In this document: positions 6,944-40,829 of the stretch, piece after piece
Layout: every line of letters begins with the position of its first letter
How positions within the stretch are numbered: the stretch's first letter is position 1
From: an uncultured Dehalococcoidia bacterium
GTDB lineage: Bacteria > Chloroflexota > Dehalococcoidia > Lucifugimonadales > UBA3495
DNA: 48,566 bases
NCBI GenBank assembly: GCA_950072105.1
Contig: CATMOE010000025.1
Span: 1 to 48,566 of the forward strand
Direction of reading: 5' to 3'
Program-made: the position numbers and the translations under genes
Notes under the pieces: generated by a model
Seen by the model: the letters and a program-made list of their open reading frames with translations, nothing else
Databases searched by the model: none
Told to the model about the DNA's origin: nothing

Positions 6944-7043
6944 TTAGATTCGCGGCTTCCGGTTATGCCGGGGCGTCGCCGGATCATGGGCGTGGGCCGT
7001 CCTCAGCCCGGTGGCATCGACAAAAAGACATCTGACGCTGCAG
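6944..7043 (-). pseudogene. Displaced, degenerate copy of the amidase 3' end
   Basis: Minus strand reads FVDATGLRTAHAHDPATPRHNRKPRI* versus amidase FDEATVLRIAHAYEQATPWHNRRPPI* (7785-7886). Confidence 0.85.
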
Positions 7044-7102
7044 GATTGGGCCAACACGCCCACGTTACTCAAGAAAGAAACTCATGTTCGATGATGATCG
7101 GC

Positions 7103-7690
7103 TCACAGCTGTCCAGCCTTCAAATCCGCAATGAAGGGTTCGTATGCCGCCCGCACCTCATTTGCCCCAGGTAGCCCCGGCTCAATCACATCCTTCTGGT
7201 AATCCTGAGCGATCTGGCCTTGTTGTTCCCGGTTGTAATCTTTGAAGTGCTTACCGTTTGCTCTCCAGCTGTTCAGACCAGGCCAACTGTCGTAGAAATA
7301 ACCGCCTTCCTGTTGGGCCCGCAATGCCTGGAATATATAGTCGGTACCGATCCGTTCGAACTGATATACGTGAACCAGTTCATGTATGAGCAGCTCGAGA
7401 TGTTCCCTGGAATGGTAACCCGACTTGGGCAGGTTGACCGTGTGAAATGTTGTGAAAGCCCTTCCTGGGCCGAACTTAAAGATCAGGGTGAGCAGTCTTC
7501 CCTCTGCAACCCGAACGGACCGATATTTGATCGAATTCTCTCCCAATACCAACGAAGCGGCTTTAATCTCAGACTCGGTCAATCGGCTGACGCCGACAAG
7601 GAAATGCCAAAAGAACTGAAACAGTCTAGGTCCCTGAAATATGTCAAACACCTTAGATATCAAGGCTTTCATCGGCGTTGCCTCCTTCAT
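7103..7690 (-). CDS. HExxH putative zinc metallopeptidase-like protein (DUF4157/Rhs-associated type)
   Basis: LIHELVHVYQ and YNREQQGQIAQDY; more AT-rich than its neighbours. Confidence 0.65.
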   Translation of the reverse strand: MKEATPMKALISKVFDIFQGPRLFQFFWHFLVGVSRLTESEIKAASLVLGENSIKYRSVRVAEGRLLTLIFKFGPGRAFTTFHTVNLPKSGYHSREHLELLIHELVHVYQFERIGTDYIFQALRAQQEGGYFYDSWPGLNSWRANGKHFKDYNREQQGQIAQDYQKDVIEPGLPGANEVRAAYEPFIADLKAGQL

Positions 7691-7784
7691 TGCCTAGAGA
7701 AATGAAACACCGCTGTCACCAGTATCCGGCATTATACCGTTTAGAATTCAAGGGATGCCCAACCCCTTGCCAGCCTATCGCGCT

Positions 7785-9212
7785 CTAAATGGGCGGTCTT
7801 CGGTTATGCCAGGGCGTCGCCTGTTCGTAGGCGTGGGCTATCCGCAAGACGGTTGCTTCGTCAAAGGGGCGTCCGGCGATCTGTAGCGCCAAAGGCAGAG
7901 CGCCTTCTCCTTCAGAAGTAAAGCCGCACAGCATGGAAAGGGCCGGAGCGCCAGCCAAGCTATAAGGACTCCGGAAGCTTCCGGCAGCCAGGGCTCGTTT
8001 GGCTTGCTCTTTGCTCTCGACTATCCGCTCGGGGGTCATCACCTCCGCCGGTCCGGCGCTGGTGGGTTGAACCAAGACGTCAACGTCGTTCAAGACCTGC
8101 AGCACTTCTTGGCGGATCAGAGCCCTTAACTTCTGCGCTTTGTAGTAAACCTGGGCCGGGATCAAGTTTCCTGCCGTGAAGGCCACTCTAGTGTTGTGGT
8201 GGTATTCCTGAGGCCGTTGCCGCAGCCACTCGGGATGGAGGCTCACCCGTTCGGTATGGGTGATGGTGCGGACAACCACTCCGGACTTGGCTCCCAATGG
8301 GAGGGAGACTTCTTTGACCTGAGCGCCCAGGCCTTTCAACACTTCCACTGCGGCCAGCACCGCGTCTCGCGTTTGAGCGGTAACCCCCGATGCATCGGGG
8401 TCGAGGAACTCTTTCACGATTCCTAGTTTCAGCCCAGAGATGTTTCCGGATAGCGCTTGGCGGTAATCGGGAACAGGCGTCTGCCGCGTATAGGAGTCCT
8501 GGGGGTCGTACCCAGCTATCGCGCCGATGGTAACGGCGCAGTCCTCCACCGTCCGCGCGACGGGGCCGATGGTGTCGATGGACCAACAAGCTCCATCCAC
8601 GCCATAACGGCTGACACGCCCCCAGGTTGGACGCAGCCCCACCAAGCCACAGTTGGCTGCCGGTCCGCGGATGGATCCGCCGGTGTCCTCTCCCAAGGAC
8701 GTAGCGCAGAGGTGGGCGGCCGTGGCCGCGCCCGAACCGGTGCTGGACGTGCCGGGACTGCGCTCCAGGTCCCACGGGTTGCGGGCCGCGCCGGAAGCGG
8801 AACTAACCGGGTCGCCCAGTGCAAACTCGCTCATGTTCAGCTTTCCCAGCAAAATAGCGCCGGCTTTCTTCAGATTCGCCATGACCGTGGCGTCCTCTTC
8901 TGGCACGAAGGTTGCCCGGAGTTTTGAACCGTCGGTGGTGCGGATGCCCTTGGTGTGGATCTGGTCTTTTATCGCCACGGGTACGCCATGCAACGGCCCC
9001 CGGTAATGGCCTTGTTGGATCTCTGCCTCGGCCTGGCGGGCATCGCGGCGGGCCTCTTCGGCGCAGACGGTGACGTAAGCGTTGACGACCGGGTTCACCT
9101 GCTCTATGCGATCCAGGTACGCCTCCACCGCTTCCACCGGGGAGACTTGCTTTGTTTCTATAAGTTTGGCCAGTTCGGTGACTGTGAGATGCGGTATCCC
9201 GGCGCGATCCAT
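7785..9212 (-). CDS. Amidase-signature family amidase (GatA/AtzE-like)
   Basis: GPLHGVPVAIKD, PGTSSTGS, GEDTGGSIRGPA (Ser-cisSer-Lys triad region). Confidence 0.92.
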   Translation of the reverse strand: MDRAGIPHLTVTELAKLIETKQVSPVEAVEAYLDRIEQVNPVVNAYVTVCAEEARRDARQAEAEIQQGHYRGPLHGVPVAIKDQIHTKGIRTTDGSKLRATFVPEEDATVMANLKKAGAILLGKLNMSEFALGDPVSSASGAARNPWDLERSPGTSSTGSGAATAAHLCATSLGEDTGGSIRGPAANCGLVGLRPTWGRVSRYGVDGACWSIDTIGPVARTVEDCAVTIGAIAGYDPQDSYTRQTPVPDYRQALSGNISGLKLGIVKEFLDPDASGVTAQTRDAVLAAVEVLKGLGAQVKEVSLPLGAKSGVVVRTITHTERVSLHPEWLRQRPQEYHHNTRVAFTAGNLIPAQVYYKAQKLRALIRQEVLQVLNDVDVLVQPTSAGPAEVMTPERIVESKEQAKRALAAGSFRSPYSLAGAPALSMLCGFTSEGEGALPLALQIAGRPFDEATVLRIAHAYEQATPWHNRRPPI

Positions 9213-9213
9213 G

Positions 9214-9402
9214 CTAGACCTCCCCTTGCGGAAATATCAGAGGCAGGGGTTCAACAGCGTTAACGCCGGGCAGATCGATCTCGTCCATCATTTCCAGTAT
9301 GGCGTTGAGGCTGTGGGCGACTTCAGTAAGCTCAGGCTCTTGGATATCCAGTCCCACGGCCCTTCCCAGGGCCTTCACTTCCAGGTTGGTCAGATCTTCC
9401 AC
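9214..9402 (-). CDS. Small GatC/AtzG-like amidase partner protein
   Basis: 62 aa, GGAGG RBS, ends 1 nt before the amidase start; EVKALGRAVGLDI...LNAILEMMDEIDLPGVNAVEP resembles the GatC pattern. Confidence 0.7.
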   Translation of the reverse strand: MEDLTNLEVKALGRAVGLDIQEPELTEVAHSLNAILEMMDEIDLPGVNAVEPLPLIFPQGEV

Positions 9403-11946: not shown

Positions 11947-11962
11947 GCAGATCGGTTAGTTG

Positions 11963-12253
11963 TTAGCGCCTTTGCGCGCTGAAACAATCACTGCAATACA
12001 CCGGCCTGTCGCCCCGGGGGACGAAAGGAACGGTAGTGTCTATGCCGCACTGGGCACACACCACCGGATGCATCTCACGTGGACCACTGCCGTATCCGCC
12101 GCGCTGTTGGTTCTTGCGGGTTTCCCGGCATTCCGGACAGCGCTTCGGCTCGTTGGTGTATCCTCGCGAATTGAAGAACTCTTGTTCTCCAACCGTGAAG
12201 ACAAACGCTGCGTTGCACTCCGAACATGATAGATCCTTGTCTGCTAGGGCCAT
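11963..12253 (-). CDS. Zinc-ribbon protein with C-terminal CxxC-x17-CxxC domain (paralogue 1)
   Basis: DKDLSCSEC..FVFTVGEQEFF..NEPKRCPEC; CAQCG..VPFVPRGDRPVYCSDC. Confidence 0.9.
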   Translation of the reverse strand: MALADKDLSCSECNAAFVFTVGEQEFFNSRGYTNEPKRCPECRETRKNQQRGGYGSGPREMHPVVCAQCGIDTTVPFVPRGDRPVYCSDCFSAQRR

Positions 12254-14296: not shown

Positions 14297-14321
14297 CGTT
14301 CGTGGTGAGCTTGTCGAACCA
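14297..14321. repeat. REP-like family C (CGTTCGTGGTGAGCTTGTCGAACC)
   Basis: Other copies at 37706-37730 and 37752-37777, partial copy at 16951-16963; all just 3' of genes. Confidence 0.75.
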
Positions 14322-14351
14322 CCATCCGATCCATAACTTGGGAGGGACCCC

Positions 14352-23425: not shown

Positions 23426-24976
23426 ATGAAGTACGACTATATAGTCCTCGGCGCGGGCTCGGCGGGTTCCATCGTGGCTACCCGCCTTAGCGAGGACTCG
23501 AACCGATCGGTGCTGTTGCTTGAGGCGGGTCCGGACTATCCCGATTTCGAAAAGCTCCCGGACGAGGTCAAATTCGGCTACGCCACTGCTACGGACATCA
23601 TGGTCAGCGACCACAACTGGCAATTTGAAGGCAAAGCCACCGAAACCGCCCCGCCCATGCTGGTGCCCAGGGGTAAGGTCACCGGCGGCTCCAGCGCCAT
23701 CAACGGCCAAGTATTTCTTCGCGGCGTCCCGGAAGACTACGACTCCTGGGCGGCCAAGGGCAACGACCAGTGGAGCTTTCAACACGTGATGCAATACCTG
23801 CGCATGGTGGAGTCGGACACCGATTTCGGCGGCGGTGACTTCCACAACTCCGACGGCCCCATCATCGTCCACCGGTTCAAGCCCGAGACCATGCTTTCCG
23901 AGCAGACGGCATTCTATAACGCCTGCCGGTCCGCCGGCATCCCCGACAGTCCCGACCACAACGCGCCGGATGCGTCGGGGGTGGGACCGTGCCCGGTTAA
24001 CAACCCCAACGGCATCCGCTGGAGCACCGCCCTCGGCTACTTGGACATGGCGCGGCACCGGTTGAACCTGACCATCAAGGCTAACTGCACCGTTCACCGT
24101 ATCTTGTTCGACGGTAAGCGCGCCACCGGGGTCCAGGTGGAGAGCGGAGGCGAGACCTTCACGGCCGAGGCAGAGGAGATCATCCTAAGTTCAGGGGCCA
24201 TCGGGTCGCCCCAGATCTTGATGCTTTCGGGAGTAGGTCCCGCAGCCCAATTGCAGGCCCTGGGCATCCCAGTGGTCCACGACCTTGCCGGCGTGGGGCA
24301 AAACATGCGTGACCACCCCATGCTTTACGTGACCTTCCGGACCAAGAAAGACCACCCCATGGACGGATTTGCACCTAGGGTCCAGATGGCCCTTCGCTAC
24401 ACGGCCCCGGACTCGGACCTGCGTAACGACATTCAGGTGCTGATGCAGTCCTATGCCACCGGAAAGGTGAATCAGGGCGGCGACCGTATGGAGCCCTTGG
24501 GCATCAGGATGCTGGCTATCCTGAACCTGGCGGTGGGTTCCGGAGAGTTGCGTTTAACTTCGGCCGACCCGGCCGTCCAGCCCTTTTTAGACTACCGGTA
24601 CTTTGAAGAGGAGTTCGACCGCCGCCGGATGCGGGAGGCGATCCGCCTGTGCGTCAAATTAGGCCAGGACGAAGTATTCAAGGACATTATCGAGGAACGC
24701 ATCGAACCCACGGACGCCGAACTGGCGTCGGACGATGCATTGGACGAATTCATGCGCCGGGAAGTCACCACCGGCCAGCACATCTCCTGCACCTGCAAGA
24801 TGGGCCCATCGAATGACCCCATGGCCGTGGTGGACCAGTATGGCAAGGTTCATGGCCTACAGAACCTGCGGGTGGTGGACGCGTCGATAATGCCCGACTG
24901 CGTGAGGGCCAACACCAACGTCACCACCATGATGATCGGGGAACACATCTCCGACTTCATCCGCCAAGGCTCCTGA
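23426..24976 (+). CDS. GMC family oxidoreductase (choline dehydrogenase/MftG-like)
   Basis: GAGSAG, LLEAGPD, RGKVTGGSSAING, GSPQILMLSGVG, LRVVDASIMP, NTNVTT. Confidence 0.92.
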   Translation: MKYDYIVLGAGSAGSIVATRLSEDSNRSVLLLEAGPDYPDFEKLPDEVKFGYATATDIMVSDHNWQFEGKATETAPPMLVPRGKVTGGSSAINGQVFLRGVPEDYDSWAAKGNDQWSFQHVMQYLRMVESDTDFGGGDFHNSDGPIIVHRFKPETMLSEQTAFYNACRSAGIPDSPDHNAPDASGVGPCPVNNPNGIRWSTALGYLDMARHRLNLTIKANCTVHRILFDGKRATGVQVESGGETFTAEAEEIILSSGAIGSPQILMLSGVGPAAQLQALGIPVVHDLAGVGQNMRDHPMLYVTFRTKKDHPMDGFAPRVQMALRYTAPDSDLRNDIQVLMQSYATGKVNQGGDRMEPLGIRMLAILNLAVGSGELRLTSADPAVQPFLDYRYFEEEFDRRRMREAIRLCVKLGQDEVFKDIIEERIEPTDAELASDDALDEFMRREVTTGQHISCTCKMGPSNDPMAVVDQYGKVHGLQNLRVVDASIMPDCVRANTNVTTMMIGEHISDFIRQGS

Positions 24977-26442
24977 TGACCCGCACCGGCGCCGATTACA
25001 TCAAGAATGTACAAGACGGGCGGTCCATCTATCTAGACGGGCAACTCATCGAGAACGCCGCCGAGCACCCGGCATTCCGGAACGCGTTGGCCACGGTGGC
25101 CCGGCTGTACGACTTTCAAGCGGCCTCGGAGAACGAAGAGCTGATGACCTTCCCGTCGCCCACCAGCGGCGGCCGCGTCAATCGCTGCTGGCAGCTTCCC
25201 CGTTCTCACGCGGAACTGGTGCAACGCCGGGAAGCGATCACCGCCTGGGCCGAGCTAACCTTTGGGTTCATGGGCCGCTCCCCCGACCACGTAGCATCCT
25301 CCTTGAGCGGCATGGCCATGGGCATCGACGTGTTCCAAAGGCACGGCGAAGACCGGGCCAAGGCGCTGATGGATTACTTTACCTACGTCCGCGACAACGA
25401 CCTGTTCGTTACCTACGTCATCGCCAATCCCCGCGCCGACCACAGCAAGGACGTTTCTCAACAAGAGGACGAGACGTTGGTGGCGGCTATCTGCGACGAA
25501 GACAGCCAGGGCGTCACTATCAACGGCGCCAAGATGCTGGGAACCAGCGCCGTCATCGCCGACGAGTTGCTGGTGACTACCGGCGCGCCCCTGAAGCCTG
25601 GCGAGGAGATGTACGCCTTTTCGGTGGCCATGCCCATGGCTACCAAGGGACTGAAGATACTGCCGAGAAAATCCTACGAAGCGTCGGCGGTCTCCCAGTT
25701 CGATAACCCCTTGTCCTCCCACTTGGACGAGAACGACGCCATCATATTGTTCGACAATGTGAAAGTGCCCTGGGACCGTGTTTTTGTCCATAAGGACACC
25801 GAGATCTGCCGGGCGCAATTCACGGATACGCCGGCCCATATGTACCAGAACTACCAGGCCCAGGTCCGCATGATGGTCAAATTGCGTTTCTTATTGGGCC
25901 TGGCAAGGAAGATTGCCGAAACCAACGGCATCTTGTCCATCCCGGAGGTCGCGGGGACGCTGGGCTATCTGGCGGCCAATACCGCGATGATGGAAGGCAT
26001 GGTCAAGGGTATGGAGGCGGGCGGAGTGTCTTACGGGCCTTACTTCGTTCCGGACCGAGGGCTCCTTTACGCCACCCAAGTTCTGAGCCAACAGTTCTAT
26101 CCCCAGATGGTCCACCACATTCGGGATCTGGGCGGAGCCAGCATGATTATGATGCCGCCCTCGGTAGCCGACTTTGGCAACCCCGAAACCGCGTCCTTCA
26201 TACACCGTACCCAGCGGTCGCCCGTGGCCGAGCCCAAAGACAAAGTTAAGCTCTTCAAACTAGCCTGGGACGCCGTGGGCTCCGAGTTCGGCTCCCGGCA
26301 AGCACAATACGAAATGTTCTACGCCGGTGGACCGTTCGTTACCCGTGGCCGATCCTTCCAGAACTACGATTGGAGCACGGTGACTGACATGGTGGACGGT
26401 CTCCTGGAAAGCTACGATCTACCGGAATCACCAATCGGATGA
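24976..26442 (+). CDS. 4-hydroxyphenylacetate 3-hydroxylase family (HpaB-like) flavin monooxygenase
   Basis: GRSPDH, GAKMLGT, DNPLSSHLDENDA, LAWDAVGSEFGSRQAQYEMFY; overlaps the GMC stop (TGATG). Confidence 0.9.
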   Translation: MTRTGADYIKNVQDGRSIYLDGQLIENAAEHPAFRNALATVARLYDFQAASENEELMTFPSPTSGGRVNRCWQLPRSHAELVQRREAITAWAELTFGFMGRSPDHVASSLSGMAMGIDVFQRHGEDRAKALMDYFTYVRDNDLFVTYVIANPRADHSKDVSQQEDETLVAAICDEDSQGVTINGAKMLGTSAVIADELLVTTGAPLKPGEEMYAFSVAMPMATKGLKILPRKSYEASAVSQFDNPLSSHLDENDAIILFDNVKVPWDRVFVHKDTEICRAQFTDTPAHMYQNYQAQVRMMVKLRFLLGLARKIAETNGILSIPEVAGTLGYLAANTAMMEGMVKGMEAGGVSYGPYFVPDRGLLYATQVLSQQFYPQMVHHIRDLGGASMIMMPPSVADFGNPETASFIHRTQRSPVAEPKDKVKLFKLAWDAVGSEFGSRQAQYEMFYAGGPFVTRGRSFQNYDWSTVTDMVDGLLESYDLPESPIG

Positions 26443-26507: not shown

Positions 26508-27389
26508 TCAGATATTGATCGTGTCCCCCCCGAGGTCGGCCCGCGCCTCAGTCGTTGTGGGGAGCGCTTCCAGGTCTCGGCAACTCAGGATTCGCTCGAT
26601 ACACGCATCACTTCCCCCAACATACGTGTCGGGGTTGTCTATCTCCGTTGCAACACACCAAGCTCGATCGTCAGGCCACCAGATGCTCGGCGACTGTGAC
26701 CAGCCACGGGGGAAGTGGTCCAAAAACGACATGACAGCATCCAGAGGGCCTTGAAAGAGCAGGTAGTCTCGGCCCGGAACTCTAAGGCGAGACGCATTTT
26801 TGTAGAGGCCTGGATCAAGGAACCCCCAGCCTTCCCAAACACAGAAGTAACAGCGGTTGGGTGTCGAGGTGAATCCCCTGAGCACGTTGGCGATCGCGCG
26901 GCACTCTTCAGATGGGAGGCACCCATATCTCGGATACGAGCCCCACGGCGGCCTCTGGTAAGGCTCAGAAAGGTTCGCAATACGTTCGAACTGCATCTCA
27001 GGATGGACGGTTCGCCCAGTCCATGAAGCCACCGTAGACCATCGGACCGGGGACCGCTGGACCGGCTCATGCCCCCGGTCTCGGAGTTCGGCAGGGTGAA
27101 ACACGCGGGCGTAGGCTGCAAATCCATCAGGCACGAACGAGCCTACCCGCACTCCCTCGATGCCAGTGGCGCTCCCCCAGGGCCAGAGGCATTCCTCAAT
27201 CCACCGCGCCGGCGCGATGTCTTCCATCAACTCGACACCTTCCGGCGCCTTCGGTATCTCGAATGCCCCCTTCACCGTTGATACTTTGGTATCGCCATTG
27301 GCCATTGGCGTGAGCGGCTGGAGGCTAGCCAGCCCGACACTTCGCATGCCGTATTTCAGCCACCGAAGGAACCGTATGATACCTGCCAA
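26508..27389 (-). CDS. Hypothetical protein (cargo)
   Basis: 293-aa ORF with VPDGFAAYARVFHP, CVWEGWG, QSPSIWWPDDRAWCVATEID; start uncertain. Confidence 0.7.
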   Translation of the reverse strand: MAGIIRFLRWLKYGMRSVGLASLQPLTPMANGDTKVSTVKGAFEIPKAPEGVELMEDIAPARWIEECLWPWGSATGIEGVRVGSFVPDGFAAYARVFHPAELRDRGHEPVQRSPVRWSTVASWTGRTVHPEMQFERIANLSEPYQRPPWGSYPRYGCLPSEECRAIANVLRGFTSTPNRCYFCVWEGWGFLDPGLYKNASRLRVPGRDYLLFQGPLDAVMSFLDHFPRGWSQSPSIWWPDDRAWCVATEIDNPDTYVGGSDACIERILSCRDLEALPTTTEARADLGGDTINI

Positions 27390-27960: not shown

Positions 27961-28118
27961 AGTGTCACCCTAGTGCTTAATCATGGGGTCGATTCGGGAA
28001 TCACGGTCGGGCGTCGCCAGGCAGAATGCAATCCTCGAGCCATCGCTAGACGCCATTGTATCGGTATAACACATCGATCTAGCTAGTTAAGCAAGCACTC
28101 AGTTAATAAAAACAAAAC

Positions 28119-28172
28119 ATGGTGGACGGTCTGGTGCACGGCTACGATCTACCGGACTTACCCGCCGGTTGA
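28119..28172 (+). pseudogene. Displaced copy of the hpaB-like 3' end
   Basis: MVDGLVHGYDLPDLPAG* versus MVDGLLESYDLPESPIG* (26389-26442); 43/54 nt identical, same stop position. Confidence 0.85.
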
Positions 28173-30053: not shown

Positions 30054-30085
30054 ATCAAGATCGTTTACGGTCCGTTATCGGGTGC

Positions 30086-31521: not shown

Positions 31522-31600
31522 CTTGTTCATAGCCGTATGGGATAGGGATAGTGTAGGCCGCCCGGATGCAGCTTACCGGCGGCCTGAGAATCGCCAAATG

Positions 31601-31629
31601 AAAAGGCCCCCAGCGATACCGGGGGCCTT
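31601..31629 (-). terminator. Terminator after the LuxR-family gene
   Basis: AAGGCCCCC-N9-GGGGGCCTT with A run on plus. Confidence 0.65.
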
Positions 31630-31691
31630 GATCCATCAAGAATAATGACGACCCGCCAAGGGCCAACACCTAAGATACTGAATCTCAATCG

Positions 31692-32663
31692 TCAGTCGTC
31701 ACCAGAGTTGGCGCCGGATAGCAGGCCAACGGCCTTCAGGTACATCAGGGCGGCCCGCACCCGGGGATGCATCGTAGCGTCCGGGCCTTCCGACTTATCG
31801 TTCTGCAGTTTGCTATAGATATTATTGATGTGGCGTTCCACGGTTTTCACGTCCCGCGACAGGAGTCCGGCAATCGTATCGTTGCGATAGCCCTTGGCCA
31901 GCCAGCCCAACACCTCCATCTCTTTGGGAGACAGCTCCTGCACGACGCCGCTACCGGAGTCACCCGTACGGATCAACTCTTCCATAACCATGGGGTCCAC
32001 TATGATCTTTCCCTCTGCCACCGAGCAAACCACCTGGTTAAGCTGTTCTACTGTATCTATGGTGTGCTTCAGGATATAGGCGCACCCGGACGAGGAGTCT
32101 CGAGAGAATTCTCGCAGCGACTTGATGCCTTGCCCATCGTACATCGCCATCAGTAGAACCAATCCCATCTCGGGACAGGTTTCTCGCAGTACCTGCAACT
32201 TCTCGACGGTGCATGGTTGCACCGCTTTGACTCCAAGTATGATTACGTCGGGCTTTAATGCTTGGACCATTCCCGCCAGGAAGTCTGTCGACGTATCGCC
32301 GGTCGACCCTAGCATTTCCATATTGGATTGGGAGTTGAACACCGAATAGTATGCTTCTCTGAGGATCTGCTGCTCTTCCGCCAGGAACACACCGATTGTG
32401 CCACTGGGCCGGCCTTGTGGCATGTGGCCTTCCATCGGCCTTTCTTTTGACATTTCCTCGGTGGGGTCCTCCCGCCGTCCGCTTTGCAACATGGCGATCA
32501 TTTGGTCTAACTCACCGTCCGCCAAGCCCAGCTTCGCCAGATATCCGGCCAGGCCGGCAACGATATCCACCCTATCCTCCCCTTTTGCCGCCTTACCTCC
32601 AACCCGAACCTTCTTTTCGCCAATAAAGTCGATGGTTCCCACCCGTGAGTCCAGCTGTGTCAT
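31692..32663 (-). CDS. Atypical NarL/LuxR family response regulator
   Basis: ELSPKEMEVLGWLAKGYRNDTIA..KTVERHINNIYSKL HTH; receiver PDVIILGVK lacks the phospho-Asp. Confidence 0.85.
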   Translation of the reverse strand: MTQLDSRVGTIDFIGEKKVRVGGKAAKGEDRVDIVAGLAGYLAKLGLADGELDQMIAMLQSGRREDPTEEMSKERPMEGHMPQGRPSGTIGVFLAEEQQILREAYYSVFNSQSNMEMLGSTGDTSTDFLAGMVQALKPDVIILGVKAVQPCTVEKLQVLRETCPEMGLVLLMAMYDGQGIKSLREFSRDSSSGCAYILKHTIDTVEQLNQVVCSVAEGKIIVDPMVMEELIRTGDSGSGVVQELSPKEMEVLGWLAKGYRNDTIAGLLSRDVKTVERHINNIYSKLQNDKSEGPDATMHPRVRAALMYLKAVGLLSGANSGDD

Positions 32664-33004
32664 AGCTCACCTCGCGCTTGCCAGGATTCTGTATCGGTTT
32701 GTATGCTCCCGGATTCAAAAGAGACCATCGCCCCATCGGGTTTGGACTTCTCAGGCATTTGGTTGGCGAGTTATCGCTTCGTGCCCGCTTTGTCCTGGTC
32801 CTTTAAATCTCGGCTGCGCTCAGTATGTGTCTCAACAGCCCGCTGGAAATCACCCGAACTGGTGATATCGGGGATGATAAAAGAGGTAACCCGTAGAAGT
32901 TAGCCCTAAGTCAGCCCGGAGGTAGCTCCTGGAGGATGATACTATGTTCCTCGGCTCGATTGGCTAGCCCATCGTGACCAACGCCGACGCCACCTGAGGG
33001 ACAC

Positions 33005-34234
33005 ATGACCAGCGTCTCTGAATACTCATCTCGCACCGAGGCCTTGCCGCCGAGACGATACCGGTTCTTGATCGCCGGTCTAGTCATGGCGGCCCACTTC
33101 TCCGTGGGCTTGAATCTGTTCACGATTTCCCCGTTGCTGGGGGATGTCATCCGCGATTATGAGATTAATCGCGGGTCGGCCGGCCTGCTGATCGCGCTGG
33201 CCCTATTGGTAGCCGCCGGCTTCGGACTGCCTGGCGGAGTGGTGATCAGCCGGTTGGGCATCGCCCGGTCCTATACTCTGGGTTGGTGGCTGGCTGGCCT
33301 CATGACGTTGTCGTTCTTAGCTCCTAACTACCTCTCCCTCTTGGCGCTACGGTTGTCGTTTGGTCTTGGGTTCGCTTTGGTATTGATAACCACCGGCCCC
33401 CTTTTGCTGCGATGGTTCAGGCCCAAGGAAGTCTTGGTGATGAACGGATTGAACACCGCGGTCTTGAGCCTGGGAATCGCCATCAGCATTGCCACGGCAG
33501 CACCTCTCGCCGGGGTCCTGGGATGGCAGAATTCTCTGAGCGTTTTCGGAGCGATCGGCTTAGTAGGAGCAGCCGCTTGGACCGTTCTGGGGAAAGTGCC
33601 GGGGGACTCGGTTCGAAAGTCCGGCTCCATGTCCTTCAGGGCGATCCCGCGTCTCATCCGAAACCGGCAGATCGTACTGTTGCTCTTGGCTGACGGCGGA
33701 GTGTTGGTCCAATACACCGCCCTAACCGCGTGGCTACCGGCTTTTTACACGGAAGTCCGTGGCATGACGCCAACAGGGGCAGGCTTTGCAACCGGGCTAT
33801 TGCCCTTCATCGGAGTATTCGCCGTTTTGCTTGGCGGCTTCTTGCCCTTGAGATTCGGCACGCCCCGGAGCTACTTCATCTGGCCGGGGATCTTGCTGGC
33901 CATCGGCGGTCCCGCCTCTTTCCTTTTAGGCAGCGCCACCGGGATCTACTTGGGTCTGATATTAGTCGGGATTGGGTCTTGGCTGTACGTGCCCACCTTG
34001 CTATCACGAACGATGGAACTGGTCAGGAACGACCCGGAGCGTGTCGCGGTGGTTTGGGGTTCGTTGTTAACCTTCTCCGGTTTGGGCATGTTCATCGCCC
34101 CCGTAATGGTGGGAAGCCTGCGGGACCTGACCGGCTCCTATCTGCCGGGGTTCTTTATCGGTTCGATAGCAGCGCTGACGCTGCTGGCTGCTGGACTTGC
34201 GATGCCTCGGGGCCGGGTCCAATCGCCACCATGA
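33005..34234 (+). CDS. MFS transporter (CynX-like)
   Basis: About 12 hydrophobic segments; WLPAFY, GSLRDLTGSY. Confidence 0.85.
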   Translation: MTSVSEYSSRTEALPPRRYRFLIAGLVMAAHFSVGLNLFTISPLLGDVIRDYEINRGSAGLLIALALLVAAGFGLPGGVVISRLGIARSYTLGWWLAGLMTLSFLAPNYLSLLALRLSFGLGFALVLITTGPLLLRWFRPKEVLVMNGLNTAVLSLGIAISIATAAPLAGVLGWQNSLSVFGAIGLVGAAAWTVLGKVPGDSVRKSGSMSFRAIPRLIRNRQIVLLLLADGGVLVQYTALTAWLPAFYTEVRGMTPTGAGFATGLLPFIGVFAVLLGGFLPLRFGTPRSYFIWPGILLAIGGPASFLLGSATGIYLGLILVGIGSWLYVPTLLSRTMELVRNDPERVAVVWGSLLTFSGLGMFIAPVMVGSLRDLTGSYLPGFFIGSIAALTLLAAGLAMPRGRVQSPP

Positions 34235-34433
34235 TTCGGACGGCCTCCTGTCAAAGGTTGGAGGCTTCAAGAAGCTCATTTATCGGCCAAGTGGATGATC
34301 CGCCGCCCATACACACCACCATTGACATCCCATTTTCCGGCTAGTACCGTTAAGGCCGCCTCGCCTAACCAACCTGTGCGGGCCAGATTACATTCTTCAC
34401 TAACGTCTCTGAATGGCGAAAAAGGGGGCCAAA

Positions 34434-34991
34434 ATGGCTAGAGCGCCGATACCTACCAGGGAAAGCGTACCCGAGAAATACCGTGATCTGTTCGACCAAG
34501 TAGTCAAGGAGAGAGGCGGCCCACCCACCAGCGGTCCCGGGTCGGTAACCCTCAACAGTCCGGAGATAGCTCAACGGACTAATCACCTATCGGCCTATCT
34601 GCGCCAAGGTTCAGGTCTGCCCGCCAACGTCCAGGAACTGGCCATGCTTACCACGGCCCGGGAACTGGACTGCCAGTACATCTGGAACGCCCACGCGGCT
34701 TCCGGACGCCAGGCAGGCTTGAGCGATGCCTTGGTGGACGCCATGCGGGACGGGCGCGACCTGCCCAACTTGAGCGCCGACGAAGCGGCCGTTGTGAACC
34801 TGGGCCGGGACTTTTTCCGAACCCACAAGGTCAGCGATTCCACCTACGAGGCAGGAGTTCAGCAGTTTGGCGTGCACGGCCTAACGAACCTGGTGAATCT
34901 GATGGGCTATTACGCCTTACTGGCCTTCAACGCCAACACCTTCGTCATCGACCTCCCCGACAACCGCACCGAAGACACATTGCCGATCTAA
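34434..34991 (+). CDS. Carboxymuconolactone decarboxylase/AhpD-fold protein
   Basis: ELAMLTTARELDCQYIWNAH, GLSD, LMGYY. Confidence 0.85.
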   Translation: MARAPIPTRESVPEKYRDLFDQVVKERGGPPTSGPGSVTLNSPEIAQRTNHLSAYLRQGSGLPANVQELAMLTTARELDCQYIWNAHAASGRQAGLSDALVDAMRDGRDLPNLSADEAAVVNLGRDFFRTHKVSDSTYEAGVQQFGVHGLTNLVNLMGYYALLAFNANTFVIDLPDNRTEDTLPI

Positions 34992-35019
34992 CGCCAGGGA
35001 GTAAAAAGGACTGACGGAT

Positions 35020-36171
35020 ATGGAAGTTAAACCCTACCAGATACACATCCCGGACTCCGTCCTAGCCGACCTGAGGGAGCGGCTGGAGCGCACCCGCTGG
35101 CCTGGCGAGATTCCCGATTCCTGCTGGGACTACGGCTCCAACCTCGGCTACGTCAAGGAGTTGGTGGATTATTGGGTTGACGGATTCGACTGGCGGGCAC
35201 GGGAAGAAGCGATAAACGCTCTGCCCCATTTCCGGGCTACTGTCCAGGACTTAGACATTCACTTCATACACCACCGCGGCAGCGGCCCTAACCCGCTCCC
35301 CTTGATCATCACCCACGGTTGGCCCAGCACGTTCTTTGAAATGCTGGAAATAATACCCCTGCTTACGGACCCGGCCGGCCATGGCGGCTCCGCCGAAGAC
35401 TCTTTCGATGTGGTGGTCCCTTCCATGCCGGGCTACGGTTTCTCCCAACCCGCGCTCCAGCCCGGTATGAGCGTATTCAAAGTGTCGGACCTATGGGCGG
35501 AGCTGATGACGGAGGGATTGGGGTACCAGCGGTTCGGAGCCCAGGGCGGCGACTGGGGAGCAAGTGTGACCGCCAGGCTAGGCTTCTCTTATCCCGAAAA
35601 CGTCATAGGCATCCATCAGACGTCGGTGACCAGGCCGGTCCCCTACTTGGGTCCCGGATCGCGTCCCATCTCAAAACCGGAAGAAGACTACCAGGCGGAC
35701 CGCGACCGGTGGCAGCGGGCCGAGGGTGGGTATTCCCACATCCAAGGCACCAAGCCTCAAACCCTATCCTATGGCTTGAACGATTCCCCGGCGGGTCTGG
35801 CAGCCTGGATAGTCGAGAAGTTCCGTACCTGGAGTGATTGCGACGGGGACGTGGAGCGCAGTTTCAGCAAGGACGAACTGCTGACCAATATCACTATCTA
35901 CTGGGCCACCCAGACGATCAACTCGTCTACCCGCATCTACTACGAGACCCAGCAGACCATTTGGGAATTGAAACAGGACGAGATGATAAGGGTCCCCACC
36001 GGCGTGGCGGTCTTTCCCAAAGAACTCAGCCACCCGCCCAGGGAGTGGGCCGAACGGTCATACAACCTACAGCGATGGACCCAGATGCCCAGGGGCGGAC
36101 ACTTCGCGGCTTTGGAAGAGCCCAACTTGCTGGTAGAGGACATCCGCGCCTTCTTCCGGCCTCTCCGTTAG
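35020..36171 (+). CDS. Epoxide hydrolase (EHN + alpha/beta hydrolase)
   Basis: HGWP, PSMPGYGFS, QGGDWG, GGHFAALE. Confidence 0.93.
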   Translation: MEVKPYQIHIPDSVLADLRERLERTRWPGEIPDSCWDYGSNLGYVKELVDYWVDGFDWRAREEAINALPHFRATVQDLDIHFIHHRGSGPNPLPLIITHGWPSTFFEMLEIIPLLTDPAGHGGSAEDSFDVVVPSMPGYGFSQPALQPGMSVFKVSDLWAELMTEGLGYQRFGAQGGDWGASVTARLGFSYPENVIGIHQTSVTRPVPYLGPGSRPISKPEEDYQADRDRWQRAEGGYSHIQGTKPQTLSYGLNDSPAGLAAWIVEKFRTWSDCDGDVERSFSKDELLTNITIYWATQTINSSTRIYYETQQTIWELKQDEMIRVPTGVAVFPKELSHPPREWAERSYNLQRWTQMPRGGHFAALEEPNLLVEDIRAFFRPLR

Positions 36172-36419
36172 TAGGCGGGACAGATTGCCTGCTATAATCC
36201 AGACGCCCTGGCGAACATAACCGCCACTGATAATTGGGCCGAAAACAGGTTTGAGCAAGCACTAATCTGTTGATATAGAGATTACAGGCCGCGCCCGCAA
36301 GAACCATTCGCCTTAGTTTGGTTCGCCAAGCCGGTCCTGAGACCAGCATTGGAGTCGCGAGTGTGGTTATGGCGATAGACCGGAATGGAATCGGGAAGGG
36401 AGCTTCCTCAGGGTTGATT

Positions 36420-36824
36420 TTGTCCGACGTCATTGAAATTAAACTCCCGCCATCTTCAGAGTATCTAGCCGTCGTTCGCGCCACGATAGGCGTGATCGCC
36501 GGCAATATGTCGTTTAATTATGATGAAGTCATACAGTTGAGAGTAGCCGCCTCTGAAGTCTTCAGCCTGGCTATGGAATGGATTTCCCAAGATGCCGCGG
36601 CCTCGGCTACCCGAGAGTTGGCATTACAGTTCATCGTGGAAGGAAACAAACTGGAGATCCTCGTCCCTAACCAGATCAGTTACACCGTATCGCTGACCGG
36701 GGATGACATGGTCGAAAGCAAGGCTCTTCTGGAGAGCTTGATGGATGAAGTGGAGTTTGGTGGGGGAGCCAACGAAGACCCTATGATACGGATTGCCAAA
36801 TACAACACGGTGGAAACCGGCTGA
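36420..36824 (+). CDS. Anti-sigma factor RsbW-like (HATPase_c_2)
   Basis: IKLPPSSEYLAVVR, LRVAASE, LLESLMDEVEF; directly upstream of a SigB/SigF-type gene; ATP-binding boxes look degenerate. Confidence 0.75.
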   Translation: MSDVIEIKLPPSSEYLAVVRATIGVIAGNMSFNYDEVIQLRVAASEVFSLAMEWISQDAAASATRELALQFIVEGNKLEILVPNQISYTVSLTGDDMVESKALLESLMDEVEFGGGANEDPMIRIAKYNTVETG

Positions 36825-36903
36825 ATGGTCTTCTATCCAACGCCGGGTTTGATCTGCTCATACGGGGCGCCCGGCCGGTTATAGGTAACGGGGAAGGTAC
36901 AAG

Positions 36904-37668
36904 ATGGGAACCAAGGGCAAATCAGAGGGGACCAAGGAGTTGCTGGCTCTCTACCGGATGTCCCAAGATCCGGAAGCGGCAGAACGCCTGGTCGTGGACC
37001 ATCTTGCTCTGGTCAAGCGGTTGTGCTAGCGTTTCCACAACTCCGGAGAGCCCCAAGAAGACCTGATACAAGTGGGAACCATCGGGCTGTTGAAAGCCAT
37101 CAAGAAGTTCGACCCTGAATTGGGCAGCAGCTTCATCTCTTTCGCGGTGCCGGTCGTCGTAGGCGAGATTAAAAACTACTTCCGCGACCACGGCTGGGCC
37201 GTGAAGGTGCCCAGAAAGCTTCAGAGCCAAAAAATGGCCGTGGACCGGGCGGTGGTAGGACTCACCCAAAACCTGGGACACACTCCCACGGTGCCGAAAA
37301 TAGCCGAGGATACAGGCTTCTCCATCGAGGAAATAGCCGAAACCTTTGAAGTGGAGCGGTTCGGCAAACCCCTATCTTTAGACGCCCAATACGAATCGGA
37401 CGACAGCGAAGACGTGTCCAGCATCCTGGACTATATGGGGGTCCCAGACCCGGACCTAGAGGGGTTGGCCGACCGGGTAGACCTGGAATTGGCGCTAGAT
37501 GGAGTGGACTCCCGCGAGCAGGTCATCATTTACCTAAAGTTCTTCTCGGGGCTATCCCAAAGCGCCATCGCCAAGCGGCTCGGCATCTCCCAGATGCACG
37601 TGTCCCGCCTCCAACGCACCGCTCTGAACAAGCTCAAGTCCTCACTCATCAAGCAATCCTCCGCCTGA
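36904..37668 (+). pseudogene. SigB/SigF-type RNA polymerase sigma factor with in-frame TAG at codon 42
   Basis: From ATG 36904: ...HLALVKRLC*RFHNSGEPQEDLIQVGTIGLLKA...GEIKNYFRD...GISQMHVSRL; TAG at 37027-37029. Confidence 0.85.
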
Positions 37669-37705
37669 CCTCGGCCCTTCCAAGCATTCCTCCGGCGTCA
37701 CTTCC

Positions 37706-37777
37706 CCGTTCGTGGTGGGCTTGCCGAACCGCTCACGCCCATCTTCCCTAACCGTTCGTGGTGAGCTTGTCGAACCA
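37706..37777. repeat. Two tandem copies of REP-like family C
   Basis: CCGTTCGTGGTGGGCTTGCCGAACC and CCGTTCGTGGTGAGCTTGTCGAACC. Confidence 0.75.
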
Positions 37778-37864
37778 ACCACCGCGCTGGGACAACCGGC
37801 CTCTCCTCCTCACCTGTATAATCATCGGGTTACTATTCATCCCCATCAGGAGAGGAGAATAACC

Positions 37865-38416
37865 ATGTCCTGGATACGCGAAGAAGACGTCCCCATGTCC
37901 AACGTCATAAAAGTTATGTCCATCCTGCCTTCGGCCATGGAGGCGGTTGGCGCTCTGAACCAGGCGGTAACCTTCGGATCTTCCGCGCTTACCAGGGTGC
38001 AGGAAGAGGCCATCGCCACGGCGGTGTCGGTTTACAACCATTGCCGCTTTTGAACCATGGCTCACGGAGGGTTCCTCCGTCAGCACTCCGACGACCCCCA
38101 ACTGGCCAGCCACATCATGCACGACTACACCAAGGCCGATCTGGATCCGGAAACGCGCGGCATGTTGGACTTCGCCGTGAAACTTACCCGGGAGCCAACA
38201 AACATGAGCGAGGCCGACGTTAAAGGACTGCGGGCGCTGGGCCTAACCGACGAACAGATCCTCTCGGTAGTGCTAATCACTTGCACGTTCAACTTCATGA
38301 CCCGCCTGGCCGACGGGCTGGGAGTCCAAGTACCCGAAGGCAGACAGGAAGCCCACGAGCGTTGGCTAACCGGCCCAGCGCTCCAGCAAGAGTGGCTGAT
38401 GACCGCCAAGCCCTAG
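37865..38416 (+). CDS. AhpD/CMD-like peroxidase-related selenoprotein (CxxU), 183 aa
   Basis: ORFs 37712-38053 and 38057-38416 are in frame across TGA 38051-38053: EAIATAVSVYNHCRF-U-TMAHG; hairpin follows. Confidence 0.85.
38060..38084 (+). promoter_or_regulatory. Candidate bacterial SECIS element
   Basis: GCT-C-ACGGAGG-GTT-CCTCCGT-C-AGC; loop G about 18 nt after UGA. Confidence 0.7.
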
Positions 38417-38511
38417 CAGCCGGACCCAGTGGCGTTGACACGGAAAACAGGGCGACTTATCATCGAACAGGCAGCGTGGGCGTAACTCAGTGTAGTGTTT
38501 GCTTCCCAAGC
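38369..38511 (+). repeat. Direct repeat: ahpD-like 3' end, promoter and 5' half of tRNA-Gly (copy 1)
   Basis: Matches 40684-40829; includes TTGACA-N17-TATCAT. Confidence 0.9.
38476..38511 (+). pseudogene. Truncated 5' half of tRNA-Gly(CCC)
   Basis: GTGGGCGTAACTCAGTGTAGTGTTTGCTTCCCAAGC; D-arm deletions, ends just after the anticodon loop. Confidence 0.85.
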
Positions 38512-38582
38512 CCCGCGCTCTCAAAGCTGTGCTTCCGTAGCTACAAACCACCCCAAAACTTGTCCAGTTATCTGCTGTAATT
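38503..38582 (+). repeat. 80-bp att-like direct repeat (copy 1)
   Basis: 75/80 identical to 39690-39769; begins at the anticodon loop TTCCCAA. Confidence 0.85.
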
Positions 38583-38652
38583 CTGACCACTGCCAGCAGG
38601 GGAGAAAAGTTCGATCCGTTCATTCAGTAATCCACCTTATTTCTGTAGGCGA

Positions 38653-39123
38653 GTGTTGGTAATGGGAATCAAATCGTTAGCCTGCCCAATGTCAAATGAA
38701 CGGATTGACAAGAATGTTGTGAGGTCTTCCGCAATTATTACGGCAGTCATCATAGCGTCGTACTCGGTGCTTTCTTTGGTATCAACCGCAAGTGTATTCA
38801 TACTGATGTTGTTACTTGCTGGCGACTACGCTGTGAGGGTGTTCACCCACAACCTCAGTCCAATCGGCTGGTTGGGACACCAACTCACTCGTCGGCTTAG
38901 GATGACTCCGAAGCAGATGGACAAGGCTCCCAAAATATTTGCGGTGAGAGTAGGGTTTATCTTTGCTGCCAGTTCAGTTGGATTATTTTTCGTAGATCCA
39001 ACAATTGCAATCGGGGTAGGTCTGGCACTATTGGCCTTCAATTTGTTAGACGGCGTTCTCGACATATGCGTGGGTTGTTATTTTTACACCTATGTATCGC
39101 TGCCTTTGTTCGGACAGAAATAA
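38653..39123 (+). CDS. DUF4395-like membrane protein
   Basis: IDKNVVR, SPIGWL, APKIFAVRVG, DICVGCYFY. Confidence 0.75.
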   Translation: MLVMGIKSLACPMSNERIDKNVVRSSAIITAVIIASYSVLSLVSTASVFILMLLLAGDYAVRVFTHNLSPIGWLGHQLTRRLRMTPKQMDKAPKIFAVRVGFIFAASSVGLFFVDPTIAIGVGLALLAFNLLDGVLDICVGCYFYTYVSLPLFGQK

Positions 39124-39194
39124 CTGCCGTAGGCAAATAAGAACAAAGCCCCGGCGAATCTGGGGCGATCCAAAAACGCGAAGAAGAGTTAACC

Positions 39195-39632
39195 ATGAGT
39201 GAATACATACCAAGTCCTTGGCAATTTGTATCCAATCAGGTTGAACGATACGAAAGTAGCGGGGGCACCGAGGGTTCAACTTTCATGGACACGGGTCTGT
39301 CAGTAATAATTGTGACCAACAAAGGATGGAAGACAGGCGCTACCCGTAAGACTCCGCTGATGAGGGTAGTGGACGGGGACAGCTATATCTTGGTGGCCTC
39401 CAAGGCTGGAGCGCCGGAACATCCCTTTTGGTATCACAATCTGAAGGCAGAGCCGTACGTCGAGATTCGCGACAAAACTGAAGTGTATGCGATGCGGGTC
39501 AGAGAGGTTGTAGACCCAGCCGAGCGGCAACGGCTCTGGGATTTAGCGGTCTTGGCATTCCCTACTTATCAGGAATACCAAGAGAAAGCCAATCGGCTCC
39601 TTCCAGTTTTCTTAGCAGAACCAGCCGGATAA
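39195..39632 (+). CDS. Nitroreductase-family deazaflavin (F420)-dependent oxidoreductase
   Basis: KTGATRKTPLM, LVASKAGAPEHPFWYHNL, YQEYQEK. Confidence 0.9.
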   Translation: MSEYIPSPWQFVSNQVERYESSGGTEGSTFMDTGLSVIIVTNKGWKTGATRKTPLMRVVDGDSYILVASKAGAPEHPFWYHNLKAEPYVEIRDKTEVYAMRVREVVDPAERQRLWDLAVLAFPTYQEYQEKANRLLPVFLAEPAG

Positions 39633-39689
39633 GTAGCAAAGGTCCGACGTGTCTAGTACAACCTCAGAATGTTACTTGCTAGCACGTGA

Positions 39690-39769
39690 TTCCCAAGCCC
39701 CGCGCTCGCAACGCTGTGCTTCCGTAGCTACGAACCACCCCAAAACCTGTCCAGTTATCTACTGTAATT
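39690..39769 (+). repeat. 80-bp att-like direct repeat (copy 2)
   Basis: TTCCCAAGCCCCGCGCTC...GTCCAGTTATCTACTGTAATT. Confidence 0.85.
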
Positions 39770-39927
39770 TCTCGATGGTGAATTGGACTTAATGGCTCTG
39801 GCGGAGTGGCGCTCCAGAACCATGCTCCAAAGATATGCCGCCAGTACCGCAGCCGAGCGGGCTTTGGACTCCCACAAACGGATTTCGCTCAGTGACCGGC
39901 TATAGCCTTTTCGTTGAACTCGATCTA

Positions 39928-40470
39928 TTACCTTATATCTGCCCTTTCCGACTGTGAGGAGAATGCGGTCCCCTCTTTGGTTATAGTTATAGGCTGGTTG
40001 GTATGGAATTCCCTAAAGCTCAATCCGAATAAAACCGGCGGCTGGGTATAGGTGATCTTACAATGGACGGTCATGGGTATGGACTCACGACTAAAAGTGG
40101 ACCGAGTTCGAACTCCCCCTTCTGGAGTGATCTCCCTCGTCTGCTTCAGTAATGCAGGAACGTAGAATGCAGTCTGCGGCACGTCAACCGTGGTAGTCGC
40201 CTGCTGGTGGGGGAAGATCGCACCTAACTGATGGCTAGAGGGCTCGAACTCTGACACCGAATAGGTTAGGTCCAGTTTAACGTTTGTCGCGGGTATTTCG
40301 CCTACGTTAGCAACTACGATCTCCCACACTATCGGTTCATCCAGCCCTTCATATTTGGAGGCTGGGCATTTAATCTACTGTACGCCAAGGTACGGGCGAT
40401 TTCGGCCCAGGTAGGTGAAGATCGATGTCAAGAATGCCCCGATGGCGATTAAAATTGATAGGGATGCCAT
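39928..40470 (-). pseudogene. Membrane-anchored hypothetical protein with in-frame TAG
   Basis: MASLSILIAIGAFLTSIFTYLGRNRPYLGVQ*IKCP...VWEIVVANVGEIPATNV; TAG at 40375-40377 in frame with ORF 39928-40329. Confidence 0.6.
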
Positions 40471-40683
40471 AATCAGGAATACCCCACGGCTGGATTAGAC
40501 TGACGTGATCTTGTCCCAAGTTTACATTGCGCCCAAAAGCAAGTGCCCCCGGCGGTGGTATGAACACCCCGAGGGCGTGGCGTCACCCAGAGTGGACCGG
40601 GCAACGCGAAATCTATTATCGCATACATGGACCGTTCGCCCTTTGGTGACGACGGGCTTTTTCTTTTATACGCCGGGGGGTTG

Positions 40684-40829
40684 ACCGGCCCGGCACTCCA
40701 GCAAGAGTGGCTGATGACCGCCAAACCGTAGCGACCGGCCCCAGTGGCGTTGACACGGAAAACGGGGCGACTTATCATCGAACAGGCAATGCGGGCGTAA
40801 CTCAGTGGTAGAGTGTTTGCTTCCCAAGC
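40684..40829 (+). repeat. Direct repeat copy 2 (ahpD-like tail, promoter, tRNA 5' half)
   Basis: Encodes TGPALQQEWLMTAKP*, identical in protein to the selenoprotein tail. Confidence 0.9.

Follow-up and report, generated by a model that had tools for sequence, protein, structure and literature searches.

The stretch of DNA analysed here (the window; 48,566 nt, contig CATMOE010000025.1 of GenBank assembly GCA_950072105.1) comes from an uncultured Dehalococcoidia bacterium whose assembly, G000 in our numbering, comprises 4.08 Mb in 164 contigs with 92% completeness and 6% contamination; the window is its contig C25. In three places the end of a gene recurs beyond a short stretch of cargo, the anchors being an amidase-family gene (locus 1), an hpaB-like monooxygenase gene (locus 2) and an ahpD-like gene (locus 3). 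The four repeats of a preliminary description of this DNA were all recovered, namely those of the amidase (7785-7886 vs 6944-7043; 72 identical positions over 102/100 nt), hpaB-like (26389-26442 vs 28119-28172; 43/54 identical) and ahpD-like genes (38369-38416 vs 40684-40731; 44/48 identical), and a fourth (38500-38582 vs 39687-39769; 77/83 identical). When the 5 kb downstream of each gene was shuffled 200 times, the maximum scores were 31, 29 and 33 for the amidase, hpaB and ahpD tails, against real scores of 64, 57 and 76, which 0/200 shuffles equalled. The window repeats are 54-146 bp long, their copies are diverged (71-96% identity), and genome-wide the hpaB and locus 3 copies match only their own partner and the amidase orphan only its neighbour. 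The feature is real and the three loci are not alike: the proposed common layout of gene, cargo and gene tail holds at loci 1 and 2, whereas the locus 3 repeat runs on into the 5' half of a tRNA-Gly gene.

The ahpD-like gene of locus 3 (37865..38416, plus strand) has an in-frame TGA (38051-38053) that is conserved in the congener G002 and in G010; the TGA follows a cysteine motif and the genome has selB and tRNA-Sec, so that the gene probably encodes a selenoprotein. Its tail opens the left copy of the repeat (38369..38511, plus strand), in which promoter-like hexamers (recognized by eye) are followed by the decayed 5' half of a tRNA-Gly gene (38476-38511) ending in the anticodon loop. The right copy (40684..40829, plus strand) is composed of the orphan ahpD tail, a host-type promoter and the 5' half of a working tRNA, the intact tRNA-Gly(CCC) (40791..40865, plus strand) that would be the integration target. 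Over its full size of 143/146 nt the repeat has 131 identical positions and ends in the anticodon loop. Between the two copies, and in order on the plus strand, lie a stretch that resembles an att arm of a tRNA-targeting tyrosine-integrase element (38512..38582), genes for a DUF4395 membrane protein (38653..39123) and an F420H2-dependent quinone reductase family protein (39195..39632), a second arm (39687..39769) with an anticodon-loop-like core and a non-tRNA left flank and, directly after it, the last ~42 codons of a XerC-like tyrosine integrase (39780..39905). These are followed by a hypothetical ORF on the minus strand (39928..40374) with no Pfam or NCBIfam match and, by the right junction, by a hairpin-rich plus-strand segment (40534..40667) that is 82% like a segment on contig C102. 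The first hairpin of this segment resembles the leader upstream of serine-recombinase-like ORFs in three relatives (recombinase label by eye, from the N-termini), as if a further gene had been cut off at the right junction. No replication module was seen in the islet.

As far as sequence can tell, the arm and the integrase stump show that the left end of locus 3 is of integrase origin, left by a XerC-like element that entered the anticodon loop of tRNA-Gly(CCC) and displaced the 5' half of the tRNA. The fourth repeat, taken before as a mere bracket of nested cargo, starts at an anticodon-loop core and is the att arm; the window has no intact recombinase gene, as had been noted, but it does hold the C-terminal remnant of one. 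Recognizable att ends, which the preliminary description had itself named as evidence against its reading, are thus found on the left side of locus 3 together with the remnant. The tRNA-Gly(CCC) site appears to be in use for further insertions: L100 and L104, 99.7% identical to the locus 3 islet, have another insert at the identical base, a 5' duplication arose independently at the tRNA-Gly point in G007, and a contig of G002 ends at the core. Ancestry counts for the two ahpD tails (1:2 and 1:1) make neither copy clearly older. Two further observations concern the same site. In G002:C88 (L021 3530-4070) an ORF of ~180 codons, MOSC-like by eye, lies between ahpD and the tRNA-Gly promoter with no visible duplicated tail. 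A multi-copy element present at many contig ends is inserted within the locus 3 cargo, at 38841 in L100 and at 39087 in L104.

Arm matches were found in 11/119 other genomes of the family and in 19 metagenome stretches, the latter including two contigs of the same genome and several repeats of one locus. Across the order, a 22-mer of the arm (at most 3 mismatches) matched 12/400 other genomes, some by chance (8 control matches), and there were 0 exact matches in viral contigs. By eye, 28 distinct contexts combine the arm with the anticodon-loop boundary: 19 lie after the 5' halves of Gly, Val or Ala tRNAs, and the other nine comprise 3 after reversed 3' halves (Gly/Arg), 4 with an anticodon-like core and a non-tRNA flank, and 2 that are unclear. 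That the arm codes for the C-terminal end of an integrase was rejected because no long ORF stops there, and a structured RNA was rejected too (z-scores 0.22 and -0.12). Internal arms (window 39660-39700; L091, L109, L077, L082, L084) share a conserved non-tRNA left flank before the anticodon-like core, possibly an element-borne second landing site.

Relatives hold whole islands of this kind. In G004, the arm opens a 20.6-kb island that ends at tRNA-Val and has an interrupted tyrosine integrase just upstream of the tRNA, to which the window remnant is identical at 31/41 residues (76%, E 4e-20). A search of 202 family genomes matched remnant-type integrases in 14 others. Ten distinct loci reach 61% identity or more with the remnant. 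One of them is cut by a contig end; in the other 9 the integrase sits ~150 bp upstream of a complete tRNA gene (Val, Ala or Gly) and is directed away from it. Among 8 loci at 44-58%, 7 have it downstream of a tRNA. Two intact copies of the family score as XerC-like, under the XerC cut-off, and L207 is a 1.6-kb element of arm, integrase and tRNA-Ala. A remnant-type query detected no intact gene of the close subfamily in G000; the integrase on contig C34, considered as a helper, was rejected as a member of a sister subfamily, 44% identical to the remnant. In L208/L211 (G101:C70) the last ~45 codons of an intact integrase gene occur a second time behind the gene; this is the very piece that survives in the window, and a recurrent break point inside the integrase gene is possible. 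More tRNA-anchored islets occur in G000 (C63, C102, C11, C1, C5, C34): tRNA-Val(GAC) and tRNA-Ala(TGC) carry the same arm, and the same contigs show a 5' duplication of tRNA-Leu(CAA), 3' duplications of tRNA-Lys and tRNA-Sec, and an intact sister-subfamily integrase upstream of tRNA-Val(TAC). A separate contig (G000:C23 17631-22111) has 29 tRNA genes on one strand and also a large serine recombinase.

Comparison of islands with and without an integrase bears on how the remnant arose. In two integrase-bearing islands both ends could be seen; their duplications measure 39 and 52 bp, and they have their own right end with arm-type sites. Among the integrase-less islets of the 5' type, 6/8 duplicate 64-143 bp including host promoter DNA: 143 bp in the window, 87 bp in L105 and L095 (one shared site), 87 bp in L183, 85 bp in G007 and 64 bp in C11, the last two with other arms. 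The host promoter DNA in these six indicates that in most integrase-less islets the integrase-side end has been swapped for host-type DNA, and we infer that this swap was the joining of an island allele with an empty allele rather than integrase chemistry.

At locus 2, the hpaB-like gene (24976..26442, plus strand; in-gene repeat copy 26387-26442) is followed by a minus-strand cargo gene (26508..27347) for a hypothetical protein of ~279 aa, with homologues in 37/201 other family genomes and a 35-bp tandem repeat at its 5' end (27347-27418), and then by the orphan tail (28117..28172, plus strand) upstream of larE. Since G002 has an empty hpaB-larE site, the copies could be compared with it: over the last 21 nt the orphan has 3 differences and the in-gene copy 8, and over the first 35 nt the orphan has 6 and the in-gene copy 3. 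This comparison shows the orphan tail to hold the apparent ancestral end, the old stop now lying downstream, with just the last ~16 nt of the working tail evidently new. The earlier proposal that a new tail replaces the old one is borne out here; it does not extend to leuA (see below), where the copy inside the gene agrees with the empty allele up to and including the stop.

At locus 1, the amidase-family gene (7785..9212, minus strand; PF01425) scores under the cut-off of every named NCBIfam amidase family shown. Beyond it lie the cargo (7103..7690, minus strand), a gene for a hypothetical protein of 189-195 aa with a weak eCIS_core match below the Pfam cut-off, and the orphan tail (6944..7043, minus strand), the last ~33 codons plus stop in frameshifted form, of which G002 has a more decayed copy. 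The orphan is nearest to the adjacent amidase (72 matches, vs 57-60 for three paralogue tails tested). G002 carries a 73% identical cargo at this site, the cargo is absent there in G010, and ancestry counts of 12:10 and 13:7 make neither tail clearly older.

The cargo had been called foreign-looking, which holds for its low G+C content (0.505, 0.549 and 0.505 at loci 1, 2 and 3, vs 0.576) but not for its affinities. Because an 82% nucleotide homologue of the hpaB cargo occurs in a genome of the same family and the amidase cargo cluster is commonest in Chloroflexota, the cargo appears to be drawn from the lineage's own gene pool. No cargo ORF matched restriction-modification families, and the 94 cargo frames of the three cargos had no match to transposase families in Pfam, inverted repeats not having been searched separately in the window. 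The long, diverged repeats also differ from the short, identical target duplications of an IS or transposon.

A chimeric assembly of strain haplotypes could in principle produce such repeats, and the 6% contamination, the 164 contigs and the depth dips over the locus 3 cargo would suit it. Independent contigs, from two other studies, nevertheless span two of the loci: in run X7 a 5,256-bp contig matches locus 2 (24910-30165) without a difference, and in run X9 one of 2,783 bp covers locus 3 (38056-40838) with 7. Two further metagenome contigs match 38841/39087-40832 at 99.7%, and the amidase islet is common to G002. A chimera is already refuted for loci 2 and 3, and overall its probability is close to nil. 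The contig comparison used 4 runs and the range 23000-42500, locus 1 being outside it; the raw-read run X22, which holds mainly relatives (8/333 reads at >=99%), was left unused. Seventeen metagenome runs (labelled marine, seawater, vent or subsurface) contain 36000-44000 at 0.93-0.97 of the sampled words. Judged by gene content, the bacterium would have a SAR202-like placement. In three runs the depth of the locus 3 cargo is below that of its flanks (~43 vs 58, 14.5 vs 17-20 and 29 vs 41), a weak hint of polymorphism, depth being no share of cells. G002 has an empty site at hpaB, and G010 has empty sites at the amidase and ahpD-tRNA loci; both are other species and not strains.

Genome-wide, we searched for duplicated gene ends with our own ORF caller, using 90-nt probes for genes >450 bp. 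Orphan tails lay downstream of 6/2,668 genes (leuA, a DUF885 gene, a WD40-repeat gene on C22, a TPR gene on C117, the amidase and hpaB) and orphan heads upstream of 2/2,652 (selB and an HD gene); ahpD was not probed because the ORF caller split it at its TGA. The classes of middle-downstream, head-downstream and all opposite-strand matches gave 0, and the 5 tail-upstream and middle-upstream matches all lie in long paralogue or repeat segments. A tblastn census gave more noise than the DNA census, since paralogues missed by the caller are scored as orphans. The genome-wide habit suggested earlier is real at ~one locus per 450 kb, but it is rarer than the window suggests, and it involves starts as well as 3' ends, to which anchoring had been thought restricted. 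Intergenic repeats (56 direct pairs, 11 of them two-copy, vs 9 inverted) give no evidence of many hidden intergenic cases. The length of the repeats differs from locus to locus (37-143 bp), and the two nested orphans of DUF885 start at different points. G001 has empty or shorter alleles of leuA and selB, as do G004 for DUF885 and G002 for the C22 locus; the selB ancestry count of 2:1 makes neither copy clearly older, and the count at C22, being out of register, was left aside. Orphan DUF885 tails were reported just for the own genome among the 94 with the gene, and G001 has a decayed one as well. The 1.5 kb downstream of 60 tail loci (30 of hpaB and 30 of DUF885, counting those of this genome) contained no integrase match, and among these loci there was 1 short duplication, lying past the match end; a search of hpaB tails in 120 genomes missed the known orphan and is uninformative on duplications.

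Two of these loci, both on other contigs, are informative about the junctions. At selB, the orphan head is continued, without a change of frame, by what is left of a truncated cassette gene, its final 8 codons; the cassette next to it has a complete paralogue of that gene. On C22, a dehydrogenase gene without ~158 N-terminal residues begins at the orphan junction. Both cuts have the appearance of illegitimate joins on the orphan side, in keeping with the original suggestion of one homologous and one illegitimate junction.

Taken together, our best reading is that two processes, integration by an integrase and recombination by the host, leave similar scars. We lean, a little beyond even balance, towards a fusion between two alleles of the same locus in which one junction is homologous and the other illegitimate. 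At locus 3, a XerC-like tyrosine-integrase element first entered the anticodon loop of tRNA-Gly(CCC), the arm and the integrase stump being what persists of it, and host recombination would later have joined two alleles of the locus through one homologous and one illegitimate junction. The illegitimate join would fall 55-145 bp inside DNA common to both alleles, so that this piece would be duplicated and everything past the join, including the integrase and part of a cargo gene, would be lost. The same step acting on cargo just behind a stop or just before a start would account for the islets at the amidase and hpaB and for ~six others elsewhere in the genome. The repeats would end at stops, starts or anticodon loops because the homology of the alleles ends there and because the gene or tRNA remains functional in products of this kind. 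Also in favour of the fusion are the variable repeat lengths, the differing starts of the nested DUF885 orphans and the presence of dprA and comEC. Capture of cargo, with the cargo allele as donor, and partial curing, with the empty allele as donor, yield the same product. Homology-facilitated illegitimate recombination in the laboratory has a deleting outcome, which partial curing by an empty allele fits.

Several observations weigh against such a fusion. Donor and recipient are indistinguishable, and no conspecific empty allele was recovered. No donor tract lies upstream of the repeat at leuA or selB and none is consistent overall, while those at DUF885 and ahpD could be later allele imports. 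Ancestry in the hpaB repeat switches at a 16-bp identical core, from 4:1 for the in-gene copy before it to 0:5 after it, a pattern that one crossover of a circle, or an integrase, would leave as well. Cargo genes are truncated at the orphan junction in the two protein-anchored loci just described and not at the amidase or hpaB, and two of the eight integrase-less islets, L186 and C63, duplicate just 45 and 20 bp. Moreover, the strand of the remnant is opposite to the canonical integrase layout, the 1.5-kb span of the 60-locus test is too short to see the genome's own orphans, and comEC (G000:C3 74755-77235) has an in-frame TGA near the end of its competence domain. Recombination of this type is also orders of magnitude rarer than ordinary homologous recombination, according to the portion of Kirchberger et al. 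(2017, PMC5361080) available.

Among other explanations, insertion-duplication of the Campbell type, in which a gene end and a cargo fragment are circularized illegitimately and a single homologous crossover follows within the shared 55-145 bp, accounts equally well for the truncated cargo genes at orphan junctions, and both the ancestry switch at the 16-bp core of the hpaB repeat and the lack of donor tracts outside the repeat at leuA and selB speak for it. We consider it unlikely all the same: 37-56 bp of 80-97% identity is a short substrate for RecA, no Ku that might close the circle was found in the assembly (92% complete), and no circle junction occurs among the 15/26 joints listed from the 4 runs over 23000-42500, contigs being apt to drop rare forms. 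Alternatively, all loci might be decayed site-specific elements whose integrases targeted protein-gene ends with a replacement tail and were later lost or acted in trans, much as e14 and phage 21 reportedly do at icd, where the integrase targets the gene end and a replacement tail is carried. This holds at least for the left end of locus 3, and the genome, with 10 tyrosine-recombinase matches over the Pfam cut-off, 6 large serine recombinases and two nested insertions at DUF885, would suit it. Islands free of an integration module are likewise known in Dehalococcoides (PMC3146451, as far as its available text goes). As an account of every locus it is nonetheless quite improbable. No integrase or transposase remnant was detected in the amidase or hpaB cargo by tblastn with 13 recombinases from the genome and the loci or by Pfam over 94 frames, a weak test, since Pfam missed the real locus 3 remnant too. 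The anchors are unrelated and often accessory genes, the tail loci surveyed have no integrase nearby, DUF885 orphans are confined to the own genome and G001, the nested orphans start at different points, and leuA lacks a replacement tail.

A dedicated, undescribed pathway that places cargo at the 3' ends of genes and provides them with a new tail, as entertained in the preliminary description, might be read from the confinement of short orphans to the tail-downstream and head-upstream classes on the same strand and from the 3 cases on one 48-kb contig. Such a pathway is very improbable, as the cargo ends of the protein-anchored loci share no motif, starts are duplicated and not just stops, limits of homology together with selection account for the positions, and neither a candidate enzyme nor anything else points there.

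The layout itself has already been described as insertion with long target duplication (ILTD), the first report of which is reportedly that of Nobusato et al. in 2000. Furuta, Abe and Kobayashi (2010, PMC2853133; statements on this and the other papers compared here refer to the parts of their text available) described long, variable target duplications without mobile elements, often over starts or stops and mostly in competent species. Loci 1 and 2 and ~six others in the genome fit ILTD, judged from their sequences: as in that work (PMC2853133), long variable direct repeats >30 bp, no intact mobile-element gene, an empty site in relatives and a gene that stays whole were found. In contrast, the cargo here is metabolic or hypothetical, whereas restriction-modification cargo was the search criterion of PMC2853133, and the copies are 71-96% identical, whereas the Table 2 cases viewed there match at 44-47 of 45-47 bp. 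An insert <20 kb with no other mobile element, as ILTD is defined, is present at loci 1 and 2 but not at locus 3, which has the arm and the integrase remnant, and one case here derives from an integrase island.

Islands with a crossover in the anticodon loop are said to have been labelled 'class IB' by Williams in 2002. In the Islander database (PMC4383910) 159/3,919 islands have 5' tRNA fragments, and Dehalococcoidia cases may be listed there. Locus 3 shares with such islands (PMC4383910) the upstream 5' tRNA fragment, the intact tRNA downstream, the anticodon-loop crossover and the tandem arrays. In relatives a tyrosine integrase stands beside the restored tRNA as well, the window islet having the 42-codon remnant; unlike these islands, the window has a host-type right end, and a single family of arms is used at Gly, Val, Ala and Arg tRNAs, in either orientation. 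With just the stump left, the islet would fail Islander's integrase filter. Kirchberger et al. (2017, PMC5361080) proposed homology-facilitated illegitimate recombination for orphan 3' ends of T6SS/Rhs genes, where one anchor is homologous, one join is illegitimate, the old end is pushed downstream and no integrase is involved, as we propose here; their anchor is a conserved toxin-delivery gene with variable tips, whereas ours are unrelated ordinary genes and tRNAs with a short displaced piece. Tycheposons (bioRxiv 2020.12.28.424599) and the ssrA islands of Dehalococcoides (PMC3146451) are similar in their tRNA- or tmRNA-anchored arrays, partial tRNA repeats, integrase fragments and module-free islands. 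However, the integrases of tycheposons cluster by target tRNA and their elements have replication modules (bioRxiv 2020.12.28.424599), while in the ssrA islands a serine integrase acts at the T-loop and the repeats are 20 bp long (PMC3146451). No description of the integrase-arm family in marine Chloroflexota was found in the literature searched, subscription papers being mostly outside it. A general survey of repeats around variable segments is, by report, the work of Touzain et al. in 2010. It found 10-18% of variable segments flanked by repeats, mostly <30 bp (PMC2884548).

Other repeated sequences were noted along the way. DUF520 (yajQ) cassettes at G000:C6 17233-17718 and C5 39161-39646 are 89% identical over 724 bp and both lie in islets bounded by repeats, the one on C5 being part of a tRNA-Sec array with 3' duplications. 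Within the window, 11957-12087 and 41520-41650 are a 131-nt repeat of 79% identity at the 3' ends of paralogous small zinc-finger (treble clef) genes with copies on other contigs, and short dispersed intergenic repeats occur at 14297-14328 and 37707-37784. Two adjacent minus-strand ORFs (30086-31012 and 31692-32663) share short similar stretches, also in G002; the second has a LuxR-type domain and the first no Pfam match.

The present analysis adds to the known layout the tRNA-island origin proposed for locus 3, its integrase family, and a comparison of whole with truncated islands that points to host recombination. Although the layout is known, its mechanism has been argued from static genomes, and two forms of one type of site let the second step be read. 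A bolder idea, which we put forward tentatively and rate as doubtful, is that one tyrosine-integrase family seeds cargo in the anticodon loops of Gly, Val, Ala and Arg tRNAs in both orientations and that an efficient host pathway regularly makes one-sided fusions of alleles, by which the integrase is lost and the native promoter returns. If so, the integrase-bearing and integrase-less forms would be natural before-and-after pairs revealing the mechanism of ILTD, and the kept arm may let stumps move in trans. The arm motif together with the integrase subfamily provides a search handle for such islets. If general, the process would explain how small accessory genes become fixed in uncultured marine Chloroflexota and why they escape island finders based on integrases.

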